Below, one piece after another: positions 4,923-35,282 of a DNA stretch of 64,000 bases. Origin of the DNA: an uncultured Mycoplasmatota bacterium (GTDB lineage: Bacteria > Bacillota_I > Bacilli_A > RF39 > UBA660); contig CASEGV010000001.1 of the NCBI GenBank assembly GCA_949287595.1, positions 129,982-193,981 of the forward strand. Reading direction: 5' to 3'. Position 1 is the stretch's first letter. The number at the start of each line of letters is the position of its first letter. The notes under the pieces were generated by a model. The model saw nothing but the letters and a program-made list of their open reading frames with translations. It made no database searches and was not told the origin of the DNA. A program made the position numbers and the translations under genes.

Positions 4923-5667
4923 AACCTTAATAGACTGTAAGCTTCGATTTTCTATTGCATGTAACTGATAATCTTTTTCTGTATAACCAGATAACAATGT
5001 TCCACGAGTAATTACAGGTTTTTCATCAACTCCTGAAGTTATAAACTGTGGCATTGACATTGCTACAATAGATGATAATTTAACACGAGCTGCTCTATCA
5101 AGTTCATTTTTCAAATCAGAACTAAAGCTTGCAGAAACTTCATCCTCATATTTCTTAAATTCTTGAGTCATTATCAAAAGTTTCTGTTTATCTGTAAGTT
5201 CTTTAGAATCTGCTACGTTACAAATTCTCTTATAAGTTTCCGTATCACAGTCAGCATATAATGTTTTGTAGTCAAACGTTACTACTCCAGCCATACTAAC
5301 TACGCGAAGAGCAAATTTAGTAAGTGCTTTTCTTTTTTCAACTCCATCTTCAAATTGATTTAAATAAAGACTTAACTTAGCTGCACTCTTAGCGCCAATA
5401 CGTTCAAACTCATTATTAAATATACCAATTTTATCTATATCAGCATCAAGTATTTTAGAAATACGAAGTCTACCATAACTTGTAACTTTAGATTGATAAT
5501 CTACATTTCCTATCTTTCCTGTAAATACAATCGGTGTTCCAACTTTGATTTTCTTTTCTATTTCTACATCCTTTAATAACTGAACATAATCAGTATAAAA
5601 ATATTTAGGATCTTTCAATTCTCCCAAATCAGAGTATGAGTATTCAGTTGCAACTGCTAAACCATTG
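4923..5667 (-). CDS. RNAP beta-prime-like subunit, exon 4
   Basis: Its first nt (C) completes the codon CU|C, giving ..HETL|NGLAVATEY (bacterial QDVVLGLYYMTRD). TSYGRLRISKIL, SMPQFITSGVDEKPVITRG..GYTEKDYQLHAIENRSLQSIKV match beta-prime regions E-F (..[21 protein letters not shown]). Confidence 0.75.
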
Positions 5668-6868
5668 CGTTTTATTTGTATATTTCTATACATAAACAGA
5701 CTATATAATCAACAATATACTCGTTGTTTCACTTATAGTCGTTGAACAGAATTCTTAATTAAATTTATGCTTTAAAATTTCTAAAAATTATACTATATAT
5801 TTATAAATATATAAATTTTTATTAATTTGTTTTTTATGATTTATATGTTTATAAATATCTTTTTCAGTTAATGTAATATATTTAGCATTATTCTCTTTAC
5901 ACCATTTTAATCCAGCAATCCTTTTTGCAATTACTAAACTGTTATTTAATAAATTAAATGCTTTTACTTCTACCATTAACTTTATTCCTGAATCTGTTGT
6001 TATTAAGAAATCTGGATAATAATTATGATTCCCTCCAGAATAATAGTACTGTATAGGTTCAGGTACCTCTACATTTACTATAAACTTGCTATAATCACAT
6101 ATCATTAAGAAATCTCTTTCGTAAGAAGATAAATAATAAATATCCTCTTTACATTTAGTAGATTTATAAATACCAGATTTATAATATGATCTAGACTTAA
6201 CTTTTCCTTTTTTTGACCTAGATATTTTTTTCTTTAGCCTCTTGACTTAAATGAAAATGATAACCCCTAGGTCTTTTTAGTCTCTGTTCTTCTGTAAGCT
6301 TTTTTCCTTTTTTAGATAAACTTATATTCCTCTTATTTTCTTCACTTAAAGGTCTTCCTTTTAGTTTCTTACTAACTAACTCACTTACATGTTTTACTTT
6401 ATGTAAATAACAATAAGCATAATACCCTTTACTTAAAAGAAATTTTGCTTCATTATTACAGAATCTACACTTAGGTCTATCTTCAATTGAAGAAATACCC
6501 AAATAAACTAGATCATAGTATATTTGTTTATTAACATCATCTTTTAAATATTTAGATAATCTAAAAGATGCTACCCACTTATCTTCCCCTAATTTAGAAA
6601 TCCAACTAGGAAGATAATAATAAACTGTTTTATTTTCAATTTTTTTGAAATTTTCTCTTAATCCTTTGGAATTATAAGGATTTATTTTAGAATATTTTTC
6701 ATAAATTTTATCTACTTCATTCATTTATATAAATATTAAATAAATTATATAAAATCTTAAAGCTATAAATTTAATTAAGAAAATTCTGCTGCTGATTAAG
6801 AATAAATTCTATTCCAGCAATAATGTGAAATTTTCAATCTTTAAAAAGATTGCCCCCAATTAATTTCA
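5668..6868 (-). mobile_element. Group I intron 3 with decayed homing endonuclease
   Basis: P ATTGCTGGAA (6812-6821), Q AATCAGCAG (6789-6797), R TTCAACGACTA (5736-5746), S GATTATATAGTCT (5698-5710), and a P9-like hairpin TGTATA-GAAA-TATACA. Exon CCCU pairs with GGGG (6853-6857). The last intron nt is G at 5668. Confidence 0.7.
5788..6724 (-). pseudogene. Frameshift-disrupted NUMOD3 + TnsA-like (PD-(D/E)xK) homing endonuclease
   Basis: ORFs 6218..6724 and 5788..6105 align with the N- and C-terminal halves of the intact 330-aa ORF 7198..8190 (LPSWIS, DRPKC, YYPDF..VEVK, VIAKRI, KYITLTE). They lie in different frames with a gap between them. Confidence 0.65.
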
Positions 6869-7095
6869 AGGGTTTCATGATTAAATTTATAAATAGGTTC
6901 ATTATTCTTTTTATAAATTGTAACATATCTAGGACTCATTCTTTCATAAGTCTCTTCAGCTGCTTCAGGAGGTACTAACTGTATTGATACAGTATCACCA
7001 TCAAAGTCAGCATTTAATGGTTCACATACTTGAATAGGAAAATGTATTGTATAATCCTCATGAATTCTTAACTTCATTGCAAAAGTCGAGTATTC
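6869..7095 (-). CDS. RNAP beta-prime-like subunit, exon 3 (catalytic NADFDGD)
   Basis: EYSTFAMKLRIHEDYTIHFPIQVCEPLNADFDGDTVSIQLVP aligns with bacterial [41 protein letters not shown]. Confidence 0.85.
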
Positions 7096-8309
7096 CAAAT
7101 TTCTTAATTTGTTAAATTAAGTTTAGACTGTATCATTTATTATTAGTACACAGTCGTTGAGTTTATAGAGTAAGTATTATTATATACCTTAATTTTACTA
7201 AACTATATAATCAAAAATACTAAATGATCCATGTATTCTTTTGAATAATTCAATTTCTGTTAAAGTAATGTATTTAAAATTATTTTTTCTACAATATTTC
7301 TTTGCTGTAATTCTTTTTGCAATCACAATAGGATCATTTACTAGATTTTTTGGTTTTATTTCAACAATAATAATCTGTTTGTTATTTAATGTTAATTTAA
7401 AATCTGGTATATACAAACGATCTTTACCAGAATATGTATATGGAATAGCATTTGCAGAATCTATTTCAACTACATCCTTACTAAGATCGCACATTTTCAT
7501 AAATTTTAACTCCCAAGAAGATAAATATCTCATCTCTTTCTGAGATTTATTTGGCTTATAATATCCTTTTCTCCCTCTTTTAGATTTGATATTTATTAAA
7601 GCTCTTTCAGGATCTTTCTCAATTCTCCTCAAAGCTGCTTCTCTCTGTTTATCTTTCCAAGTAATCTTTCTTCCTTTATTAGCTTTAGATAGTTTTCTCC
7701 TAGTCTCTTCAGAAACTACATGAAATTTCTTTTTCCCTTTTTGGGAATTTGAAATTTTTCTTTTTGTTTCTTCTGAATGATGTAATCCCAACTTTGCCTT
7801 TCCTCCTAAATTGTAAGTTCTAAACATTTCGTTAGTTTCTCTAAATTTATACATACATTCACTATTACAATACGTTCTATATCCATAAAATATACCTATA
7901 AATTTAGTATAGTTTCCACATGGACATTTAGGACGATCTTTAGGAGATGATAAACCTAAAATAACTATATCGTAATAGATTTGAGAAGTTATTGAATACT
8001 CTCTTTTCAATTTAGCAGCAAAAATTTTTATTGGATAATAACTATCTTTTGAAGAATTGCTAATCCAACTAGGAAGAAGAATTTTTTTAACCCCGTTATC
8101 TATCTTTATTACTTGACTAAAGTCGATTTTCTTTCCGTTATTAGGGTTCTTACTTGAATAATATTTATATATCTCATTTTCTGTCATCATATTTAAACTA
8201 TTTTAAAGAGATATATAACAATACTTACCTATAAACTGCTGATTTAATACTTTATTATTCCAGCAATTCTCTAACTTTATTAAAGTCTCCACAAATACTC
8301 GTAATCATT
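7096..8309 (-). mobile_element. Group I intron 4 with intact homing endonuclease
   Basis: P ATTGCTGGAA (8259-8268), Q AATCAGCAG (8237-8245), R TCAACGACTG (7151-7160), S AATGATACAGTCTAA (7123-7137), hairpin CTTAATTT/AAATTAAG. 8-bp P1: exon GUCUCCAU with intron GUGGAGAC (8285-8292), terminal U-G. The intron ends ..UUUG. Confidence 0.8.
7198..8190 (-). CDS. Intron-encoded homing endonuclease (NUMOD3-like repeats + TnsA-like PD-(D/E)xK nuclease domain)
   Basis: HHSEETKRKISNSQKGKK and SEETRRKLSKANKGRK repeats. The C-terminal SSWELKFM..YIPDFKL..IIVEIKPKN pattern resembles the TnsA N-terminal endonuclease fold. Confidence 0.6.
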   Translation of the reverse strand: MMTENEIYKYYSSKNPNNGKKIDFSQVIKIDNGVKKILLPSWISNSSKDSYYPIKIFAAKLKREYSITSQIYYDIVILGLSSPKDRPKCPCGNYTKFIGIFYGYRTYCNSECMYKFRETNEMFRTYNLGGKAKLGLHHSEETKRKISNSQKGKKKFHVVSEETRRKLSKANKGRKITWKDKQREAALRRIEKDPERALINIKSKRGRKGYYKPNKSQKEMRYLSSWELKFMKMCDLSKDVVEIDSANAIPYTYSGKDRLYIPDFKLTLNNKQIIIVEIKPKNLVNDPIVIAKRITAKKYCRKNNFKYITLTEIELFKRIHGSFSIFDYIV

Positions 8310-28804: not shown

Positions 28805-30970
28805 ATGATAAATAAATTAAAACCATGGATTGTACCAGGAGGAATTAGATTTTTAAGTGATTGGAAAGACTTCTTTTTCTATAAATTACCTCCTAAATGT
28901 ATAATAAACAAACAAATACCTGGATGCGGATTTACAGAAAGAGTAATTAATGGGATAGAGAATACGATCCTTTGTAGTCCTCGTATAGTTCTTCTTGAAA
29001 GTAAGTATAGTAAGCATGATAGAGATGTTTACTTAGTTAAGAATGAGCTACAGGATAATGATCCAGATATCGATAAAGATATTAGTAAAGATGATTCATC
29101 TTATTTAAATTCAAAAAAATCATCTTCTAATATGTTCGAGGAGAAATTAAAAGATTGTATTGATCCTAATCAAAGAAAAAGAGATATATATAATCGATTA
29201 ATGAGAGAAATTAAAGATTATATTAATACTAGAGACTTCTATGGTAAACCTTATAAAATCTTAGTAACATACGATTCTTATAGGATAGTACAAGATATTT
29301 TAATAGCATTAGGAAAATTTGATACTTTCTATACAATAGTAGATGAGTTTCAAAGTATCCTACATGATTCTAGATTTAAAAGTAATACTGAGAATGAATT
29401 CTTGGGTTATTTAAAAAAATCTCATTCAGCTATATTTGTTTCTGCCACTCCAATGGTAGATAAGTATTTAAATATGTTAGATGAATTTGATGGTCTTCCA
29501 TATATTGAATTCGATTGGTTAACTGAAGATCCTACTAGAGTTATAAAACCTTCTCTTAAGGTGAGAACTATGAAATCAGTAGGTACTAAGGCAGTTGAGA
29601 TTATACAATCTTATCTTAATGGAAATTTCGAGAGAGCTACTAGAATTATTAATGGTTTTCCAATAGAGATAGAATCTAGAGAGGCAGTCTTATTTATGAA
29701 TTCTGTTAACCATATTATTAGTATCATCAAGAAGTGTAATCTAAGTCCTGATCAAGTATTAATATTATGTGCTAAGACAGAAGATAATAAGAAAAAGATA
29801 AGGAAGAAACTAGGGAAATCATTTGAGATTGGACATGTTCCTAATGTAGATAAAGGAGAGATTTTTCCGATGTTTACCTTCTGTACTTCAACGGTTTATC
29901 TAGGAGCAGATTTTGATAGTTATTGTGCTAGAACTTTTATATTTAGTGATGCTAATCTTGATACACTAGCAGTAGATATAAGTGATGACCTTCCACAGAT
30001 TTTAGGACGACAAAGGAAGTCTGAAAATCCTTGGAAAAATAGTGCTGAGTTCTATTATAGAGTGACTGCAGATTATAAGAAGATGTCACAAGAGGAATTT
30101 ATGAGAGAGATAGAGAGAAAAGTAGATGTAACTAATAGTTTACTTAGGACTTATGATAATGCTCTTGATAAAGATAAATTAGCTGTAGCATCTACTTACA
30201 AAGATGTAGCTGAACTTAAGCATTATAAGGATAATTATATTTCTGTAAATACTCATGGTGGTACTGGATTATTTCCAATATTTAATAATTTAGTTAAAAT
30301 AAATGATCTTAGAGTATTTGAGATTCAACAGTATGATTATGCAGATCGTTTTACAGTATTTAGTACTATAAATGAGAGATTAGATATAGGATATTCAGTA
30401 AATCAAGAAGTTGAGGCATTTTTCTATAAATATGATCAATTAGGAACATTTAAAGAAAAACTAAGACTTCTCTGTGAATATGATATGTCAGATGAAGCAA
30501 GAAGTATTGCTTTAGAACAGATTGGAGAACATGATAATATTAGATCTTACTACTTAACTCTAAAACCAGAAAGACTTAGGGCATTAAATTATAATAGAAC
30601 TTATATTGAAAGAGAATTAGGAATAGTAGTATTTAGTAAAGAACTACTGGTTAGAACTATATTTCAAAATTTTAAGGTAGGAGATAGAGTTAGTACTGCA
30701 AATGCGAAGATTAAGTTAGGACAATTATATAATTCTATAAATTATAAAGCAACTCCGAAGGCTACTGATCTTAATGAATATTTTGATACTAAGGAAACAA
30801 AATTAACGGAGACATTAAGTGATGGAACTAAAAGAGTTGTGAAAGCAATGAATATTGTTTCTATAAAATCAGAATATCAATTCTTTTATAATAATCTACT
30901 AGTAGCAAATAATTATGTAGAACAAGAAAATAAACTTAAAGATCAAAATAACAATGATATATTTAATTGA
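28805..30970 (+). CDS. SF2 (DExH/Q-type) helicase-like protein with a C-terminal module shared with the next ORF
   Basis: Motif II IVDEFQS, motif III FVSATP, motif VI-like QILGRQRK. P-loop-position sequence IPGCGFTE is atypical. Confidence 0.55.
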   Translation: MINKLKPWIVPGGIRFLSDWKDFFFYKLPPKCIINKQIPGCGFTERVINGIENTILCSPRIVLLESKYSKHDRDVYLVKNELQDNDPDIDKDISKDDSSYLNSKKSSSNMFEEKLKDCIDPNQRKRDIYNRLMREIKDYINTRDFYGKPYKILVTYDSYRIVQDILIALGKFDTFYTIVDEFQSILHDSRFKSNTENEFLGYLKKSHSAIFVSATPMVDKYLNMLDEFDGLPYIEFDWLTEDPTRVIKPSLKVRTMKSVGTKAVEIIQSYLNGNFERATRIINGFPIEIESREAVLFMNSVNHIISIIKKCNLSPDQVLILCAKTEDNKKKIRKKLGKSFEIGHVPNVDKGEIFPMFTFCTSTVYLGADFDSYCARTFIFSDANLDTLAVDISDDLPQILGRQRKSENPWKNSAEFYYRVTADYKKMSQEEFMREIERKVDVTNSLLRTYDNALDKDKLAVASTYKDVAELKHYKDNYISVNTHGGTGLFPIFNNLVKINDLRVFEIQQYDYADRFTVFSTINERLDIGYSVNQEVEAFFYKYDQLGTFKEKLRLLCEYDMSDEARSIALEQIGEHDNIRSYYLTLKPERLRALNYNRTYIERELGIVVFSKELLVRTIFQNFKVGDRVSTANAKIKLGQLYNSINYKATPKATDLNEYFDTKETKLTETLSDGTKRVVKAMNIVSIKSEYQFFYNNLLVANNYVEQENKLKDQNNNDIFN
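30461..30934 (+). repeat. Duplicated C-terminal module, copy 1 (partner 31599..32060)
   Basis: LRLLCEYDMSDEARSIALEQIGEHDNIRSYYLTLKPERLRAL..LYNSINYKATPKATDL..NNLLVANNYVEQENK against the copy in 30954..32072. A 27-nt identical stretch AATAATTATGTAGAACAAGAAAATAAA closes both. Confidence 0.8.
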
Positions 30971-32072
30971 ATCAAGTGGTTATAACAGAGTAGGAGATAC
31001 TATCTCTTATTTTCAATTATTAAAAATAGGATATACTGAAGATTTTAAAAAAGATAAGAGATATATTTCCTATAAACTTCATAATCCTACTTGTAAGGTA
31101 TTATATGAAGTACTAGGAGGTACTGAAGATCATGAAAAAAGAATACAGTATAAATTTAAAGATCTATTATATCCTGATTATGGAAGAGAATGGTTTTATT
31201 ATTCTGAAGAGATAATAGATTTCTTTGAAGATATTCAGAATAATGGATTAGATATTGTATTAAATCTTCCTAAAGGAGCTTCTAGTAATACTGTTTATAC
31301 AACCTATAGAAATAAAGTAAAAGATATATTATACAGTATTTATGGATTTTATAGAGAAGAAAATAATATATCTCCTAAAGAATCATTAGAAGATACTATG
31401 AAAGATTACTATAATAGATTAATAGTAGATTTAGGAGATAAGATTACTGTAGAATCTGAAGTATTAGAGTATATAAGAAAAGATTTTGGAGATATATTAG
31501 TAAATAAGTATATAGAAAATAATAAATTATTTCAATCTTCTCAAGAGATATCTAAATTTATGGAAGAGTTTTCCAAATTAGATACACCTAATGATAGATT
31601 AAGATTCTTTTGTAATTATGAATTATCTGATACAGAAAGAAACATAATTCTTAATCAATTAGGAGAATATGATAATATTAGATCTTACTATACTACATTA
31701 TCTCCCGAAAGATTAAGAGCATTAGGACATAACAGTACTAAAATTCGTAGAGAATTAGGAATAGTAGCATTTAGTAAGGAATTGCTTACTATGACTATAT
31801 TCAAAAACTTTAAGATAGGTACTAGAATTCCAAATACTAAGATTAAAAATACTCTTACTAATCTTTATAATTCTATTAATTATAAAGCAACACCAAAAGC
31901 AACAGACCTAGGAGAATACTTTGAAATTAAGAAATTAAAAGTTACATTACCAGATAAGACAAGAGTAAATGGAATTGAATTAGTAGGAGTTAAGCCAGAA
32001 TATCAAGGAACTTATAATAATCTACTAGTAGTGAATAATTATGTAGAACAAGAAAATAAAGAAGAGGATTAA
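30954..32072 (+). CDS. T5orf172 (GIY-YIG-like) domain protein with duplicated C-terminal module
   Basis: N-terminal MIYLIESSG..LLKIGYTED..KR..YK..(H)EKRIQYKF..YGREWFY fits the T5orf172 pattern. The C-terminal ~155 aa are roughly 60% identical to the helicase C-terminus. Confidence 0.6.
   Translation: MIYLIESSGYNRVGDTISYFQLLKIGYTEDFKKDKRYISYKLHNPTCKVLYEVLGGTEDHEKRIQYKFKDLLYPDYGREWFYYSEEIIDFFEDIQNNGLDIVLNLPKGASSNTVYTTYRNKVKDILYSIYGFYREENNISPKESLEDTMKDYYNRLIVDLGDKITVESEVLEYIRKDFGDILVNKYIENNKLFQSSQEISKFMEEFSKLDTPNDRLRFFCNYELSDTERNIILNQLGEYDNIRSYYTTLSPERLRALGHNSTKIRRELGIVAFSKELLTMTIFKNFKIGTRIPNTKIKNTLTNLYNSINYKATPKATDLGEYFEIKKLKVTLPDKTRVNGIELVGVKPEYQGTYNNLLVVNNYVEQENKEED
31599..32060 (+). repeat. 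Duplicated C-terminal module, copy 2
   Basis: See 30461..30934. Confidence 0.8.
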
Positions 32073-32093
32073 TTTCCTCTTCTTTCTATTTTT
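32061..32093 (+). terminator. Hairpin terminator between convergent genes
   Basis: GAAGAGGA-TTAATT-TCCTCTTC followed by TTTCTATTTTT. Overlaps the stop of 30954..32072. Confidence 0.5.
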
Positions 32094-32832
32094 AATTTCC
32101 TCCATATAATCTTACTATTCTTGATGGATCGTCTTCAGTTTCATATAATACTTTCTCTATATTTCTATAATATGCTTTTTTAGATTTATAGTTCTTCCCT
32201 GGTATAAGTATTGTATTATTCATTAATTTATTTCTGTCCCATTCTAATATATCAGGGTTATCAATATTATTTGATTTTTGTGTATTTATAATTATTGATT
32301 GTTTCTTATAATTTCTTTTAGAAAGTTTTAATCTTTTTCTTTTGACTTGTTTTATAATATTTTCGTTAAATATTACAATACTCTCACAGTCCCATCCATA
32401 CAGATCTAATTTTCCACTCATACTACAGTCATATGGAGAAAATCTAGTATCATGTTCCCCATTTTCAGTAAGATATATCCCATCATATCCATCTTTCATC
32501 ATTTTCTCGTAATCTATCATAACTTCATTAAACATTCTATTTTTATCATAGATCCAATACTTTTTCAACTTAATAAGATCTAGATAAGAATTTATGGTGT
32601 ATATTTTACTATTAGGATTTATTTTAAATAAAATATATTTCTTTAAAGTTCCAATATTGAAATTTTCATCCAAACAAAATTTTCTCCAAGAATGATTAGA
32701 ATTTAGTGGAGAAGCCCATATTCCCCCACTTGGTTTATTCCACCCTCTTCTATTCTTTATTGTTTTAAATAATTTCTCTTTAATTTTATTTGTCCCATAA
32801 TGAACAAATATAATATTTTTTAAATTTTTCAT
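32092..32832 (-). CDS. Hypothetical protein (opposite-strand island, downstream of flotillin)
   Basis: Track ORF. Promoter-like motif CTCCTAAAACTCTTATAGATG lies 25 nt upstream. No motif recognised. Confidence 0.6.
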   Translation of the reverse strand: MKNLKNIIFVHYGTNKIKEKLFKTIKNRRGWNKPSGGIWASPLNSNHSWRKFCLDENFNIGTLKKYILFKINPNSKIYTINSYLDLIKLKKYWIYDKNRMFNEVMIDYEKMMKDGYDGIYLTENGEHDTRFSPYDCSMSGKLDLYGWDCESIVIFNENIIKQVKRKRLKLSKRNYKKQSIIINTQKSNNIDNPDILEWDRNKLMNNTILIPGKNYKSKKAYYRNIEKVLYETEDDPSRIVRLYGGN

Positions 32833-32857
32833 AATTTTAATTATTTTTATATATTAT

Positions 32858-32878
32858 CATCTATAAGAGTTTTAGGAG
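32858..32878 (-). promoter_or_regulatory. Promoter-like motif (class 1 variant)
   Basis: The minus strand reads CTCCTAAAACTCTTATAGATG, preceded by the terminator at 32880-32913. Confidence 0.35.
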
Positions 32879-32879
32879 A

Positions 32880-32913
32880 AGAAAAATAGAGGGATAATTT
32901 TATCCCTCTATTT
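32880..32913 (-). terminator. Rho-independent terminator after the flotillin gene
   Basis: The minus strand reads AATAGAGGGAT..ATCCCTCTATT followed by TTTTTC. Confidence 0.6.
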
Positions 32914-32916
32914 TAT

Positions 32917-34425
32917 TTATTTTACAATATTATCCTTTAGTTCATCAATATCTTTAGAGATATTAATATTTCTAGTGGTAGCGGCTTCTATTGTACCAGT
33001 TTTCAGTATTTCTTTCATATCTACTCCAGTAGCTTGACTCATAGTATCAAATACTTGTTTAACTATTACTGGAATATTACCAGTTACTCCAGAAACCTCA
33101 TTACCATTAGTACCATAGATATTTACAGAATCAATAGATTCCATAGGTTTAGCAATATTTGCTGCCATTTCTGGAAGTATTTTTATCATCATTTCAGCAA
33201 CAGCAGCACCATTATATAATTTATAAGCTTCTGCTTTTTGTTTCATAGCTTCTGCTTCAGCTATACCTTTTTGTTGAATTGCATAAGCTTCTGCTTCACC
33301 TTTTGCTTTTATACCTTCTGCCTCTTGGATTAATTTGTATCTAATGGCATCTGCTTCAGCTTTCATAGCCTCTGCTTTTTGTTCTGTTTCGTATTTTTCA
33401 GCCTCAGCATTTCTTTTTCTTTGTTCCAGAATTGCTTTTGCTTCAGTTTCAGTCTTATACTTTTCTGCCTCAGATTCTTTTTCGGTTTTATATTTTTCAG
33501 CTTCTACCTTTTTATTTATTTCAGCTTTTAATTCATTTTCACGAATTATAATTTGTTCTTGACTAAGAATCTGTTGTTTCTTCGTTTTTTCAATTTCAGC
33601 TTCAACAGATTTAGTATTAATTATTTTTTGCTGTTCTTGTTTTTGTATCTCATAAGCGGTATCAGCTTCTGCTTTTTTAGCATCTTCCTTTAGTTTTAAG
33701 TCTGATTTTTTGAGAGATAGTTCATTATTTTTTTCAGCTATCCTCATTTCAGATTCTACTTTAAAATCATTAGCTTCTTTATTTGCCTGACTACTTTTTA
33801 TGCTAATTTCTTTTTCAGCAGTTATTCTAGTAATAGCTGCTTCTTTTTTTATTTTAGAAGTATTATCAGCACCTAAATCTTTTATTAACCCTTCTCTATC
33901 TGTAATATTTTGAATATTACAGGATAATATCTCAATACCTAATTTTTCCATATCAGGAGCAGCTTTTTCCATTACCTGATCAGAGAATCCATCTCTATTA
34001 GTATTAAGTTCTTTAAGTTCAAGAGTTCCTATAATTTCCCTCATATTTCCTTGAAGAGAATCTTGCAATTGATTTGCAATATCTAAAGGTTTCATATTAA
34101 GGAAGTTTTTTCCAGCTAATCTAATTCCTTCATCTGTAGGTTTTACTCTAATTTTTGCTACTGCATCTACATCTACATTAATAAAGTCATTAGTTGGAAC
34201 AGAAGTTTCCGTTTTTATATCTACAGTAATTTGTCCTAGATAGATTTTATCTAATCGTTCAAAGAATGGCAATCTAAATCCTCCTTTACCGATAAGAACT
34301 CTAGGATTTTTGTTTAAACCTGAGATTATAAAAGCTTGACTTGGAGGTGCTTTTACATAAGAAACTAACACAATAACTACTAGAATCAGAACAATAATTC
34401 CGATTAAAATAAAAGTACTAATCAT
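32917..34425 (-). CDS. Flotillin-like SPFH (band 7) domain protein
   Basis: N-terminal TM helix, SPFH-like GKGGFRLPFFERLDKIYLGQITVDIKT..DVDAVAKIRV, then a long E/A/K-rich coiled coil with AEKYKTE repeats, as in bacterial FloT/YuaG. Confidence 0.8.
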   Translation of the reverse strand: MISTFILIGIIVLILVVIVLVSYVKAPPSQAFIISGLNKNPRVLIGKGGFRLPFFERLDKIYLGQITVDIKTETSVPTNDFINVDVDAVAKIRVKPTDEGIRLAGKNFLNMKPLDIANQLQDSLQGNMREIIGTLELKELNTNRDGFSDQVMEKAAPDMEKLGIEILSCNIQNITDREGLIKDLGADNTSKIKKEAAITRITAEKEISIKSSQANKEANDFKVESEMRIAEKNNELSLKKSDLKLKEDAKKAEADTAYEIQKQEQQKIINTKSVEAEIEKTKKQQILSQEQIIIRENELKAEINKKVEAEKYKTEKESEAEKYKTETEAKAILEQRKRNAEAEKYETEQKAEAMKAEADAIRYKLIQEAEGIKAKGEAEAYAIQQKGIAEAEAMKQKAEAYKLYNGAAVAEMMIKILPEMAANIAKPMESIDSVNIYGTNGNEVSGVTGNIPVIVKQVFDTMSQATGVDMKEILKTGTIEAATTRNINISKDIDELKDNIVK

Positions 34426-34454
34426 AAATTATTAATTTTAAATTAAACATAGTT

Positions 34455-34480
34455 CATTTATAAGGATTTTAAGGTTTAAA
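34455..34480 (-). promoter_or_regulatory. Promoter-like motif (class 1)
   Basis: The minus strand reads TTTAAACCTTAAAATCCTTATAAATG, 29 nt before ATG 34425. Confidence 0.4.
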
Positions 34481-34559: not shown

Positions 34560-35282
34560 ATGAATAATTATGAAAAGAATTTAGAAAAAATTAATAAATA
34601 TTTTAGCGAAATATTATTACTTTCAGATGTACTCTCGTTTAATTTCGATATAGTATCTAGTAAATCAAATGATTTTTATTTACCAATTCCTATAATTGTT
34701 TATAAAAACATGATTAAATGCAATATCGTTTCTAGGAGGAATTCTCAATTAACTAAAAGAGAAAAAAAATAATAATGAACTTCTTTTAGAAAATTTATTG
34801 GATAGATTTAAAATTAAGTATTTAAGTGAATATCCAATAGTGATTTCTAATAGAGAAAAGTGGGAATCTTTATGTATTGCTAATGACATAACTGATGACG
34901 ATGAGTTTTTTATCGAAAAGTAATATATGTAGATTTTATTCTTAGTGGTGGATTAATTTTAGAAGCTGATTCTAAAAAATTTCATCAAAAGACTAGTCTT
35001 CAAATAAAAAAAGATTCAATTAGGGATTCATATCTTTATGATGAGTTTAATTTATCTACTATAAGATTATTTCCTTTGATAGAGTTTCCTGAAAAAATAC
35101 AGAATAATCAGGATTTATTGAATATAAAATTTAAAAAGATTTTGAATTTATCTAAGGATAAAGAAAATCAAAATAAATCTAATTTTTATATTATTCAAAA
35201 TTTACTTAGTGAATTTTCTGGGTATGATTCTATTAAATTTAAAGAATTTTTAGATAAATTTTTTAATTCTGATAACGGTTGA
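34560..35282 (+). pseudogene. Vsr/DUF559-like endonuclease gene split by two homopolymer frameshifts
   Basis: Three consecutive frames join at A8 (34762-34769) and T6 (about 34904-34909). The third piece reads YVDFILSGGLILEADSKKFHQKTSLQIKKDSIRDSYLYDEFNLSTIRLF, the DUF559/Vsr-like pattern (DF..viE.DG..H....D..RD..L...G..v.R.). Confidence 0.5.

Follow-up and report, generated by a model that had tools for sequence, protein, structure and literature searches.

A phage flotillin probably swapped in as a single-gene cassette beside an independent resident gene

On the minus strand of the 64,000-nucleotide stretch analysed here (the window; positions 129982-193981 of a 370,971-bp contig filed under an uncultured Mycoplasmatota bacterium) lie two neighbouring genes: one for a flotillin of 502 residues (32917-34425) and an open reading frame (ORF) of 246 residues, ORF246 (32092-32832). 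Every other ORF of at least 120 residues from 28805 to 64000 is on the plus strand. An earlier note on this DNA, made from the letters alone, described two leftward genes within a rightward block, each preceded by a promoter-like motif and the two separated by a terminator, and proposed that they form a two-gene island in which the flotillin is accompanied by a private partner. The coordinates, strands, motifs and terminator are as that note described them; the partnership is not, and the evidence points instead to a flotillin that arrived by itself, next to a gene that was already in residence.

The sequence CTTATA[A/G]ATGA precedes both genes, as CTTATAAATGA at 34454-34464 for the flotillin and as CTTATAGATGA at 32857-32867 for ORF246, in each case on the minus strand and with 35-39 nt from the start of the motif to the ATG. 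The 371-kb contig contains 78 copies of its core, CTTATANATG, against 12.4 expected from shuffled sequence, mostly 27-50 nt before a start codon and within a conserved upstream context (tttcct...ccttNaaaNc). The rest of the bin, 1.74 Mb, has only 16 copies, making the contig about 23 times denser, and within the window this class of motif is absent from the tail-fibre block. Between the two genes stands a minus-strand hairpin terminator (32883-32914) with a perfect 14-bp stem followed by a T-run, a fold energy of -18 kcal/mol and a z-score of -5.6, while a second, bidirectional hairpin terminator (32058-32085) is common to ORF246 and to a convergent 372-residue gene. Upstream of the flotillin there is only its promoter and a divergent, broken gene of 280 residues. 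As judged from these signals, the flotillin gene and ORF246 are separate transcription units.

The larger protein is a bona fide flotillin by every sequence comparison made, as the earlier note had recognised from its letters. It matches the Pfam models Band_7 (PF01145; E 1.9e-22, 80.6 bits against a cut-off of 23.6), which delimits an SPFH domain at residues 25-204, and Flot (PF15975; 2e-9, 38 bits against 27) in its C-terminal domain, as well as the NCBIfam model FloT (NF058507; 2.5e-77) and human flotillin-1 (PDB 9l3g; 2.4e-55 over residues 26-330). With 261 bits against the NF058507 cut-off of 700 it belongs to the FloT family without being a FloT equivalog. Residues 3-22 (STFILIGIIVLILVVIVLVS) are uniformly hydrophobic and would serve as an N-terminal membrane anchor, and the SPFH domain is followed by a coiled coil rich in glutamate and alanine, with two copies of AEKYKTE, one of AEKYETE and AEAMK repeats; these are repeats of the protein only, as no tandem repeats were found in the DNA of the coiled-coil region. 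The order of anchor, SPFH/Band_7 domain, coiled coil and Flot domain is that of the bacterial flotillins FloT (YuaG of Bacillus subtilis) and YqiK (Escherichia coli), from which the present gene differs in being phage-encoded, in its phage-like guanine-cytosine (GC) content (30%), in the phage promoter motif in front of it and in the lack of an NfeD/YqiJ-like neighbour. Human flotillin-1 and flotillin-2 assemble into a dome-shaped membrane cage of 44 subunits (PDB 9l3g, 9bq2). That complex is a eukaryotic hetero-oligomer held to the membrane by acylation and a hairpin, in contrast to the single gene and hydrophobic N-terminus of the phage; it is solely from the clear homology over residues 26-330 that we infer cage formation by the phage protein.

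How the flotillin came to lie here can be read from relatives that lack it. No flotillin stands beside ORF246 in the contigs L127, L128 and L010, nor in the more distant L009, whose ORF246 homologues are 94% (L127 and L128), 88% (L010) and 71% (L009) identical to ORF246 in protein sequence. The blastn alignment of L127, L128 and L010 with the window descends collinearly from 36200 to 34455 at 97-98% nucleotide identity, then jumps to 32895 and continues through ORF246; some 1,565 bp of the window (32893-34457, minus strand) correspond to about 62 nt in these three contigs. Both junctions could be read directly. The left breakpoint falls within the promoter motif, which is the same in L127 and L010 as far as the break, the common sequence ending in ...aaaccttaaaatCCTTATAA before it diverges; the right one lies in the terminator, on its descending arm, and the common sequence resumes there as CCTCTATTTTTCTTCTCC.... 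The exchanged segment consists of the 5' untranslated region (UTR) and ORF of the flotillin and, from the terminator, the 5' arm and the loop; the slot it fills is occupied in the flotillin-less relatives by a promoter-to-terminator unit of about 70 nt that folds into a very stable hairpin, resembling a small RNA (sRNA). The promoter of ORF246 is conserved in all relatives, those without a flotillin included. By parsimony across the flotillin-less contigs, the flotillin was gained in this lineage, replacing the hairpin unit. The insertion is shared by L129, which represents the same phage type; L129 and L019, a 254-kb record in IMG/VR identical to the present contig, are independent assemblies with the same junctions. 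The L129 flotillin, of 462 residues, lacks residues 351-390 (40 residues; window 33256-33375), deleted in-frame between two AEAMK repeats, and elsewhere departs from the window by three synonymous differences only, a length polymorphism of what is predicted to be the cage-forming helix. The hairpin is capped by GUGA in L127 (slot at 5877-5940) and by GGGA in L010 (slot at 5875-5940), with z-scores of -5.2 and -4.7.

Phage morons, known from lambda and HK97, are accessory units that lie between conserved genes and carry a promoter and a terminator of their own. The flotillin resembles them in being a single accessory gene, bounded by promoter and terminator and present or absent among near-identical relatives. 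It differs in that it brought no promoter, using instead that of the hairpin unit whose body it replaced, in a composition that is not foreign (GC 0.302 against 0.283 for the window), and in the absence of any sign of lysogeny at the locus. The moron-type insertion proposed earlier can therefore be kept for the flotillin alone, as a unit of about 1.57 kb missing from the same spot in four relatives, and has to be given up for ORF246, which is a resident gene.

The two genes likewise fail to travel together elsewhere. A hidden Markov model (HMM) of the ORF246 family, run over flotillin loci with margins of 8 kb on either side in viral and 3 kb in bacterial sequences, found a family member beside a flotillin only in L019, the same phage, and in none of 27 other viral IMG/VR loci or 80 bacterial ones. 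No gene of the ORF246 family occurs anywhere in five flotillin-bearing records of huge phages (327-416 kb, 91-100% complete), in a search that recovered the family in the L019 record at 6.8e-58. Conversely, no flotillin lies near the ORF246 homologues of L002, L005-L010, L127 and L128. The genes of 244-247 residues near the flotillins of L011 and L016 were considered as hidden counterparts and are not homologous to ORF246. What does keep company with ORF246 in this phage group is a convergent helicase-like paralogue (in L005, L009 and L010), around which accessory genes vary; its relatives in other phages have small early-type genes and genes of nucleotide metabolism for neighbours. The private partner of the earlier note is thus a resident that keeps its own promoter where no flotillin is present and is paired with none elsewhere, and the two-gene 'system' is not real. 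Two observations had been named in advance as telling against such a system: the lack of co-occurrence elsewhere was found, and a clear unrelated function for ORF246 was not.

The flotillin has a history of its own. Its nearest cellular homologues are flotillins of rumen Prevotella and other Prevotellaceae, 62-68% identical over their full length, together with one from Alistipes, and closer homologues (70-74%) are found on contigs of 379-389 kb and other phage-like contigs. A maximum-likelihood tree of 89 sequences, obtained by a quick search and rooted at the midpoint, places the window flotillin within a 12-member clade drawn exclusively from phage and metagenome contigs, with a support of 98 in the Shimodaira-Hasegawa-like approximate likelihood ratio test (SH-aLRT); this clade is sister to the Prevotellaceae/Alistipes clade (SH-aLRT 97), and further viral flotillin clades branch deeper. 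The gene has a GC content of 30%, close to the 28% of the phage, compared with 47-56% in bacterial copies. The ratio of nonsynonymous to synonymous substitution rates (dN/dS) is about 0.15 against L014 and L011, a rough value because dS is saturated (1.3-1.5). L011, a 379-kb phage, and L016 have many genes in common with the contig, scattered and at 45-70% identity, and carry their flotillins in other contexts, again with a similar promoter-like motif upstream and a hairpin downstream. Because the clade is all-phage, the GC phage-like, the dN/dS low and the gene recurrent in related huge phages, the flotillin is, as far as comparative evidence can tell, a long-standing and selected member of the huge-phage gene pool that moves as a monocistronic unit; and since its clade is sister to Prevotellaceae flotillins, it is probably host-derived, through an old capture.

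Nor is a phage-borne flotillin as unusual as had been supposed, with at least 28 loci in IMG/VR in addition to several contigs of 379-389 kb. Vibrio phage KIT04 (LC487410.1) carries an annotated 'flotillin family protein', likewise a full-length flotillin in a tailed phage, in a different genomic context, and the uncultured phage MT835492.1 (L001) has a full-length flotillin 52-54% identical to ours, again in a different context. The present gene is a further case in an already annotated setting and belongs to a known family. No paper on phage-encoded flotillins was found in the literature that was searched; one candidate, PMC13245101, concerns a phage that integrates into the floA gene of its host. 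A partner of the NfeD type stands neither beside the flotillin here nor in two Prevotellaceae loci, and a crude scan by transmembrane-segment counts found no consistent NfeD-like membrane neighbour in either the Prevotellaceae clade or the phage clade sister to it; the same scan found an ORF with several transmembrane segments upstream of the flotillin at some deeper viral and Butyrivibrio loci.

The replicon that bears these genes has a GC content of 27%, ends that overlap by 80 bp, tail-fibre genes and a fibre-like protein of 2,708 residues. The bin to which it was assigned has 7% contamination, and the bin's family relatives have genomes of 0.8-1.3 Mb. On account of the tail-fibre genes, the overlapping ends, the matching IMG/VR record, the concentration of the promoter motif and the small genomes of those relatives, the contig is probably a complete, circularly assembling huge phage, mis-binned with a small-genome bacterium to which it is unrelated. 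As the tree would suggest, the phage probably infects a bacterium of the Prevotellaceae type. The surroundings of the locus gave no sign of a prophage or of lysogeny.

ORF246, which contains the GGIWASP and DLYGWDCESIV motifs noted earlier, is a soluble protein of two domains. Its N-terminal domain (about residues 1-165) matches phrog_8582 (7.4e-9), a family of unassigned function in PHROGs, and belongs to a family of 5,255 representative clusters (50% identity) at E <= 0.001, most of whose members are stand-alone proteins of 140-180 residues; the basic linker and the C-terminal domain of about 80 residues occur only in close relatives. Neither Pfam nor NCBIfam has a model that matches ORF246, and Pfam has none for 75 further members of the family. 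The gene is under purifying selection (dN/dS 0.10-0.18) and its product has no hydrophobic or membrane segment. AlphaFold (AF2) models are confident, with a predicted local distance difference test score (pLDDT) of 86.8 over the full length and of 91.9 over the N-terminal domain. A sequence-profile search of the PDB found nothing for ORF246, and a fold search of the PDB with the full-length model found no neighbour (best E 1.9). In L005 the homologue is fused to an upstream 279-residue gene that has no Pfam match.

The reading that we favour, with a probability of roughly three in four, is that the flotillin and ORF246 are independent units, neighbours by chance, the flotillin being a single-gene cassette swapped into the genome of a huge phage. 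ORF246 would be a resident accessory gene under purifying selection, with its own promoter and terminator, at a recombination-prone spot beside the helicase-like paralogue. The cassette, which runs from the 5' UTR through the ORF to halfway into a terminator, would have replaced the transcribed body of the sRNA-like unit through recombination within the repeated promoter motif (at CCTTATAA|) and within the 3' arm of the terminator (CCTCTATTTTT). Given where these breakpoints lie, the flotillin would be driven by the resident promoter and end at a hybrid terminator. On a longer view the flotillin clade would circulate among huge phages of the rumen and gut after an old capture from a host, having ameliorated in GC and spread as a monocistronic unit. 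The protein would be made during infection and inserted into the inner membrane of the host, with its hydrophobic N-terminus as the anchor, and may oligomerise into SPFH cages as flotillin-1/2 and QmcA do. Huge phages have long infection cycles, throughout which such cages might keep the membrane stable or remodel it, or else regulate a membrane protease or complex. What is established for FloT/YqiK and HflK/C points to an influence on how fluid the membrane is, how its complexes are put together or how a membrane protease is controlled. The flotillin is by this analogy probably a membrane scaffold made during infection, in which role ORF246 would have no part.

Several points weigh against this account. 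The physiological role given to the flotillin draws only on knowledge of FloT/YqiK and of SPFH cages, and the assignment of the host is indirect, through the sister position of the Prevotellaceae flotillins in the tree. The direction of the swap, gain here and not loss elsewhere, depends on parsimony over four flotillin-less contigs, and as these contigs are short their phages could have a flotillin at another locus. Saturation of dS blurs the estimate of selection on the flotillin. Finally, the two genes are probably co-expressed, being adjacent and under promoters of the same type, and a functional link between them that is specific to this lineage is possible.

Some points speak for the two-gene module first proposed, a scaffold with a private partner acting in superinfection exclusion, membrane remodelling or counter-defence: the genes are adjacent on one strand, have the same class of promoter-like motif and are both under purifying selection, and the arrangement recurs in L019 and L129, although these are the same phage type. 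Against this stand the persistence of ORF246 without a flotillin in close relatives, the lack of any family member near 107 other flotillin loci or in five near-complete flotillin phages, the strong terminator and second promoter between the genes, and the nature of ORF246 itself, a protein with no hydrophobic segment and with relatives among nucleotide-metabolism and early-type genes. Neither protein matches any defence family of PADLOC-DB 2.0 at E <= 0.1, and we regard the module as very improbable. The flotillin might alternatively be a defence or exclusion moron in its own right, its cages altering the membrane such that competing phages fail to inject their DNA or to lyse the cell, to the advantage of the resident phage. 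Its presence in some close variants and absence from others is typical of accessory fitness genes, and it forms a self-contained promoter-to-terminator unit; yet it has no PADLOC match, no effector or sensor partner and no prophage or lysogeny context around it, and its retention in a deep, all-phage clade under strong purifying selection is at least as compatible with a function in the infection cycle of the phage itself, which leaves the moron an unlikely, if more plausible, alternative. Least credible of all is that the flotillin is bacterial DNA, brought in by mis-assembly or by a very recent capture from a host, and no true phage gene. The 62-68% identity of the Prevotellaceae flotillins and the place of the contig in a bacterial bin with 7% contamination would allow it, but the gene is far below bacterial copies in GC, it is flanked by phage sequence in which the promoter and terminator elements are those of the phage, the same junctions are found in two independent assemblies (L019 and L129), and its closest relatives are all on phage-like contigs.

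A further question, separate from that of the flotillin, is whether ORF246 is a divergent enzyme of the ADP-ribosyltransferase (ART) fold, PARP-like or ART-PolyVal-like, that acts early in infection, modifying a protein or nucleic acid of the host independently of the flotillin. In a Foldseek search of the PDB the top matches of its N-terminal domain are almost all ART catalytic domains, led by PARP4 (E 0.055, probability 0.60) and followed by PARP1, ARTD2, PARP13 and the tankyrases at template-modelling (TM) scores of about 0.35. A search of BFVD returned an 'ART-PolyVal-like domain' protein of Salmonella phage Mutine (E 8e-4, TM-scores 0.36/0.54), along with proteins of the giant eukaryotic viruses Klosneuvirus and Fadolivirus. 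The residues most conserved across the family (H11 in 71% of members, G13 in 96%, W39 in 100%, S41 in 91%, D148 in 99% and E150 in 93%) follow the ART order, with H11-Y12-G13 on the first strand, W39-x-S41 on the next and D148-x-E150 before a late strand, and one member is fused to an HNH/DNA-binding-like domain. The equivalence of H11, W39-S41 and D148-E150 to the catalytic H-Y-E (or R-S-E) triad is an unproven candidate. On the other side, neither ORF246 nor the 75 members has an ART match in Pfam, no PDB match falls below E 0.01, the TM-scores are 0.30-0.36 with root-mean-square deviations of 8-12 A, and the histidine is missing in 29% of members. Membership of ART-PolyVal was considered and rejected: PF18760 is silent in this genome, hhalign gives probabilities of 0.55% with a two-sequence alignment and 1.3% with one of 11 genuine ART-PolyVal domains, and PHROGs draws no link between phrog_8582 and ART-PolyVal. 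The nearest structural neighbours of the N-terminal domain are ART-PolyVal (PF18760) and PARP domains, which top the fold searches of both libraries and with which it has the order H-x-G / W-x-S / D-x-E of conserved residues in common; ORF246 departs from them in its low TM-scores and want of sequence-profile support, and we do not file it as a member. We hold the ART fold to be a tentative proposal, at somewhat less than even odds. That the N-terminal family, very large, viral and devoid of a Pfam or NCBIfam model or a solved structure, is a new divergent clade of PARP-like ART fold serving host takeover or counter-defence is more doubtful again.

The family of ORF246, rather than the flotillin, is the more novel element at the locus, and it flags a very large uncharacterised group of viral proteins worthy of biochemical study. 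The supposed new two-gene system can be struck from the record, and what replaces it bears on both the physiology and the evolution of huge phages. A flotillin clade maintained by purifying selection in phages of 300-400 kb that infect Bacteroidota of the rumen and gut would imply that such phages gain by adding a scaffold of their own to the host membrane, and offers a clue to what keeps the envelope intact or organised during very long infections. Flotillins are membrane scaffolds whose role in bacteria is still debated, and nature supplies ready-made comparisons in phages that have the cassette, lack it, or have a coiled coil 40 residues shorter. The clean promoter-to-terminator swap suggests, in addition, that repeated regulatory elements act as recombination sites through which the accessory genes of huge phages are shuffled.

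The surroundings of the two genes are variable too. Downstream of ORF246 the window has the convergent 372-residue gene, which is T5orf172-like (30954-32072), while L010 has a coiled-coil ORF of 170 residues (6846-7358) and L009 an ORF of 113 residues with an N-terminal transmembrane segment (6809-7150); since both this gene and the flotillin slot vary, cassettes appear to be exchanged on both sides of ORF246. The broken gene upstream of the flotillin (34560-35282), in pieces here, is an intact ORF of 280 residues in L127 and L128, and is split differently in L010, into ORFs of 120 and 111 residues. Beyond the T5orf172-like gene lies a helicase-like gene of 721 residues (28805-30970), one of five full-length paralogues in the phage genome, which are 52-55% identical to the L005 homologue. 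The others lie at about 73.6k, 215.3k, 284.9k and 362.5k of the contig, and the C-terminal module occurs by itself in several further copies.

Two observations concern flotillins elsewhere. In L038-L043, a deep viral flotillin clade that includes a 411-kb phage record, a conserved ORF of 246 residues with two predicted transmembrane segments lies about 38-41 nt upstream of the flotillin and may be an NfeD-like partner, which the clade of the window lacks. In L001 (4546-6839), an AAA-ATPase-like gene just upstream of the flotillin is apparently split by a homing-endonuclease ORF of the LAGLIDADG type (4928-5590).

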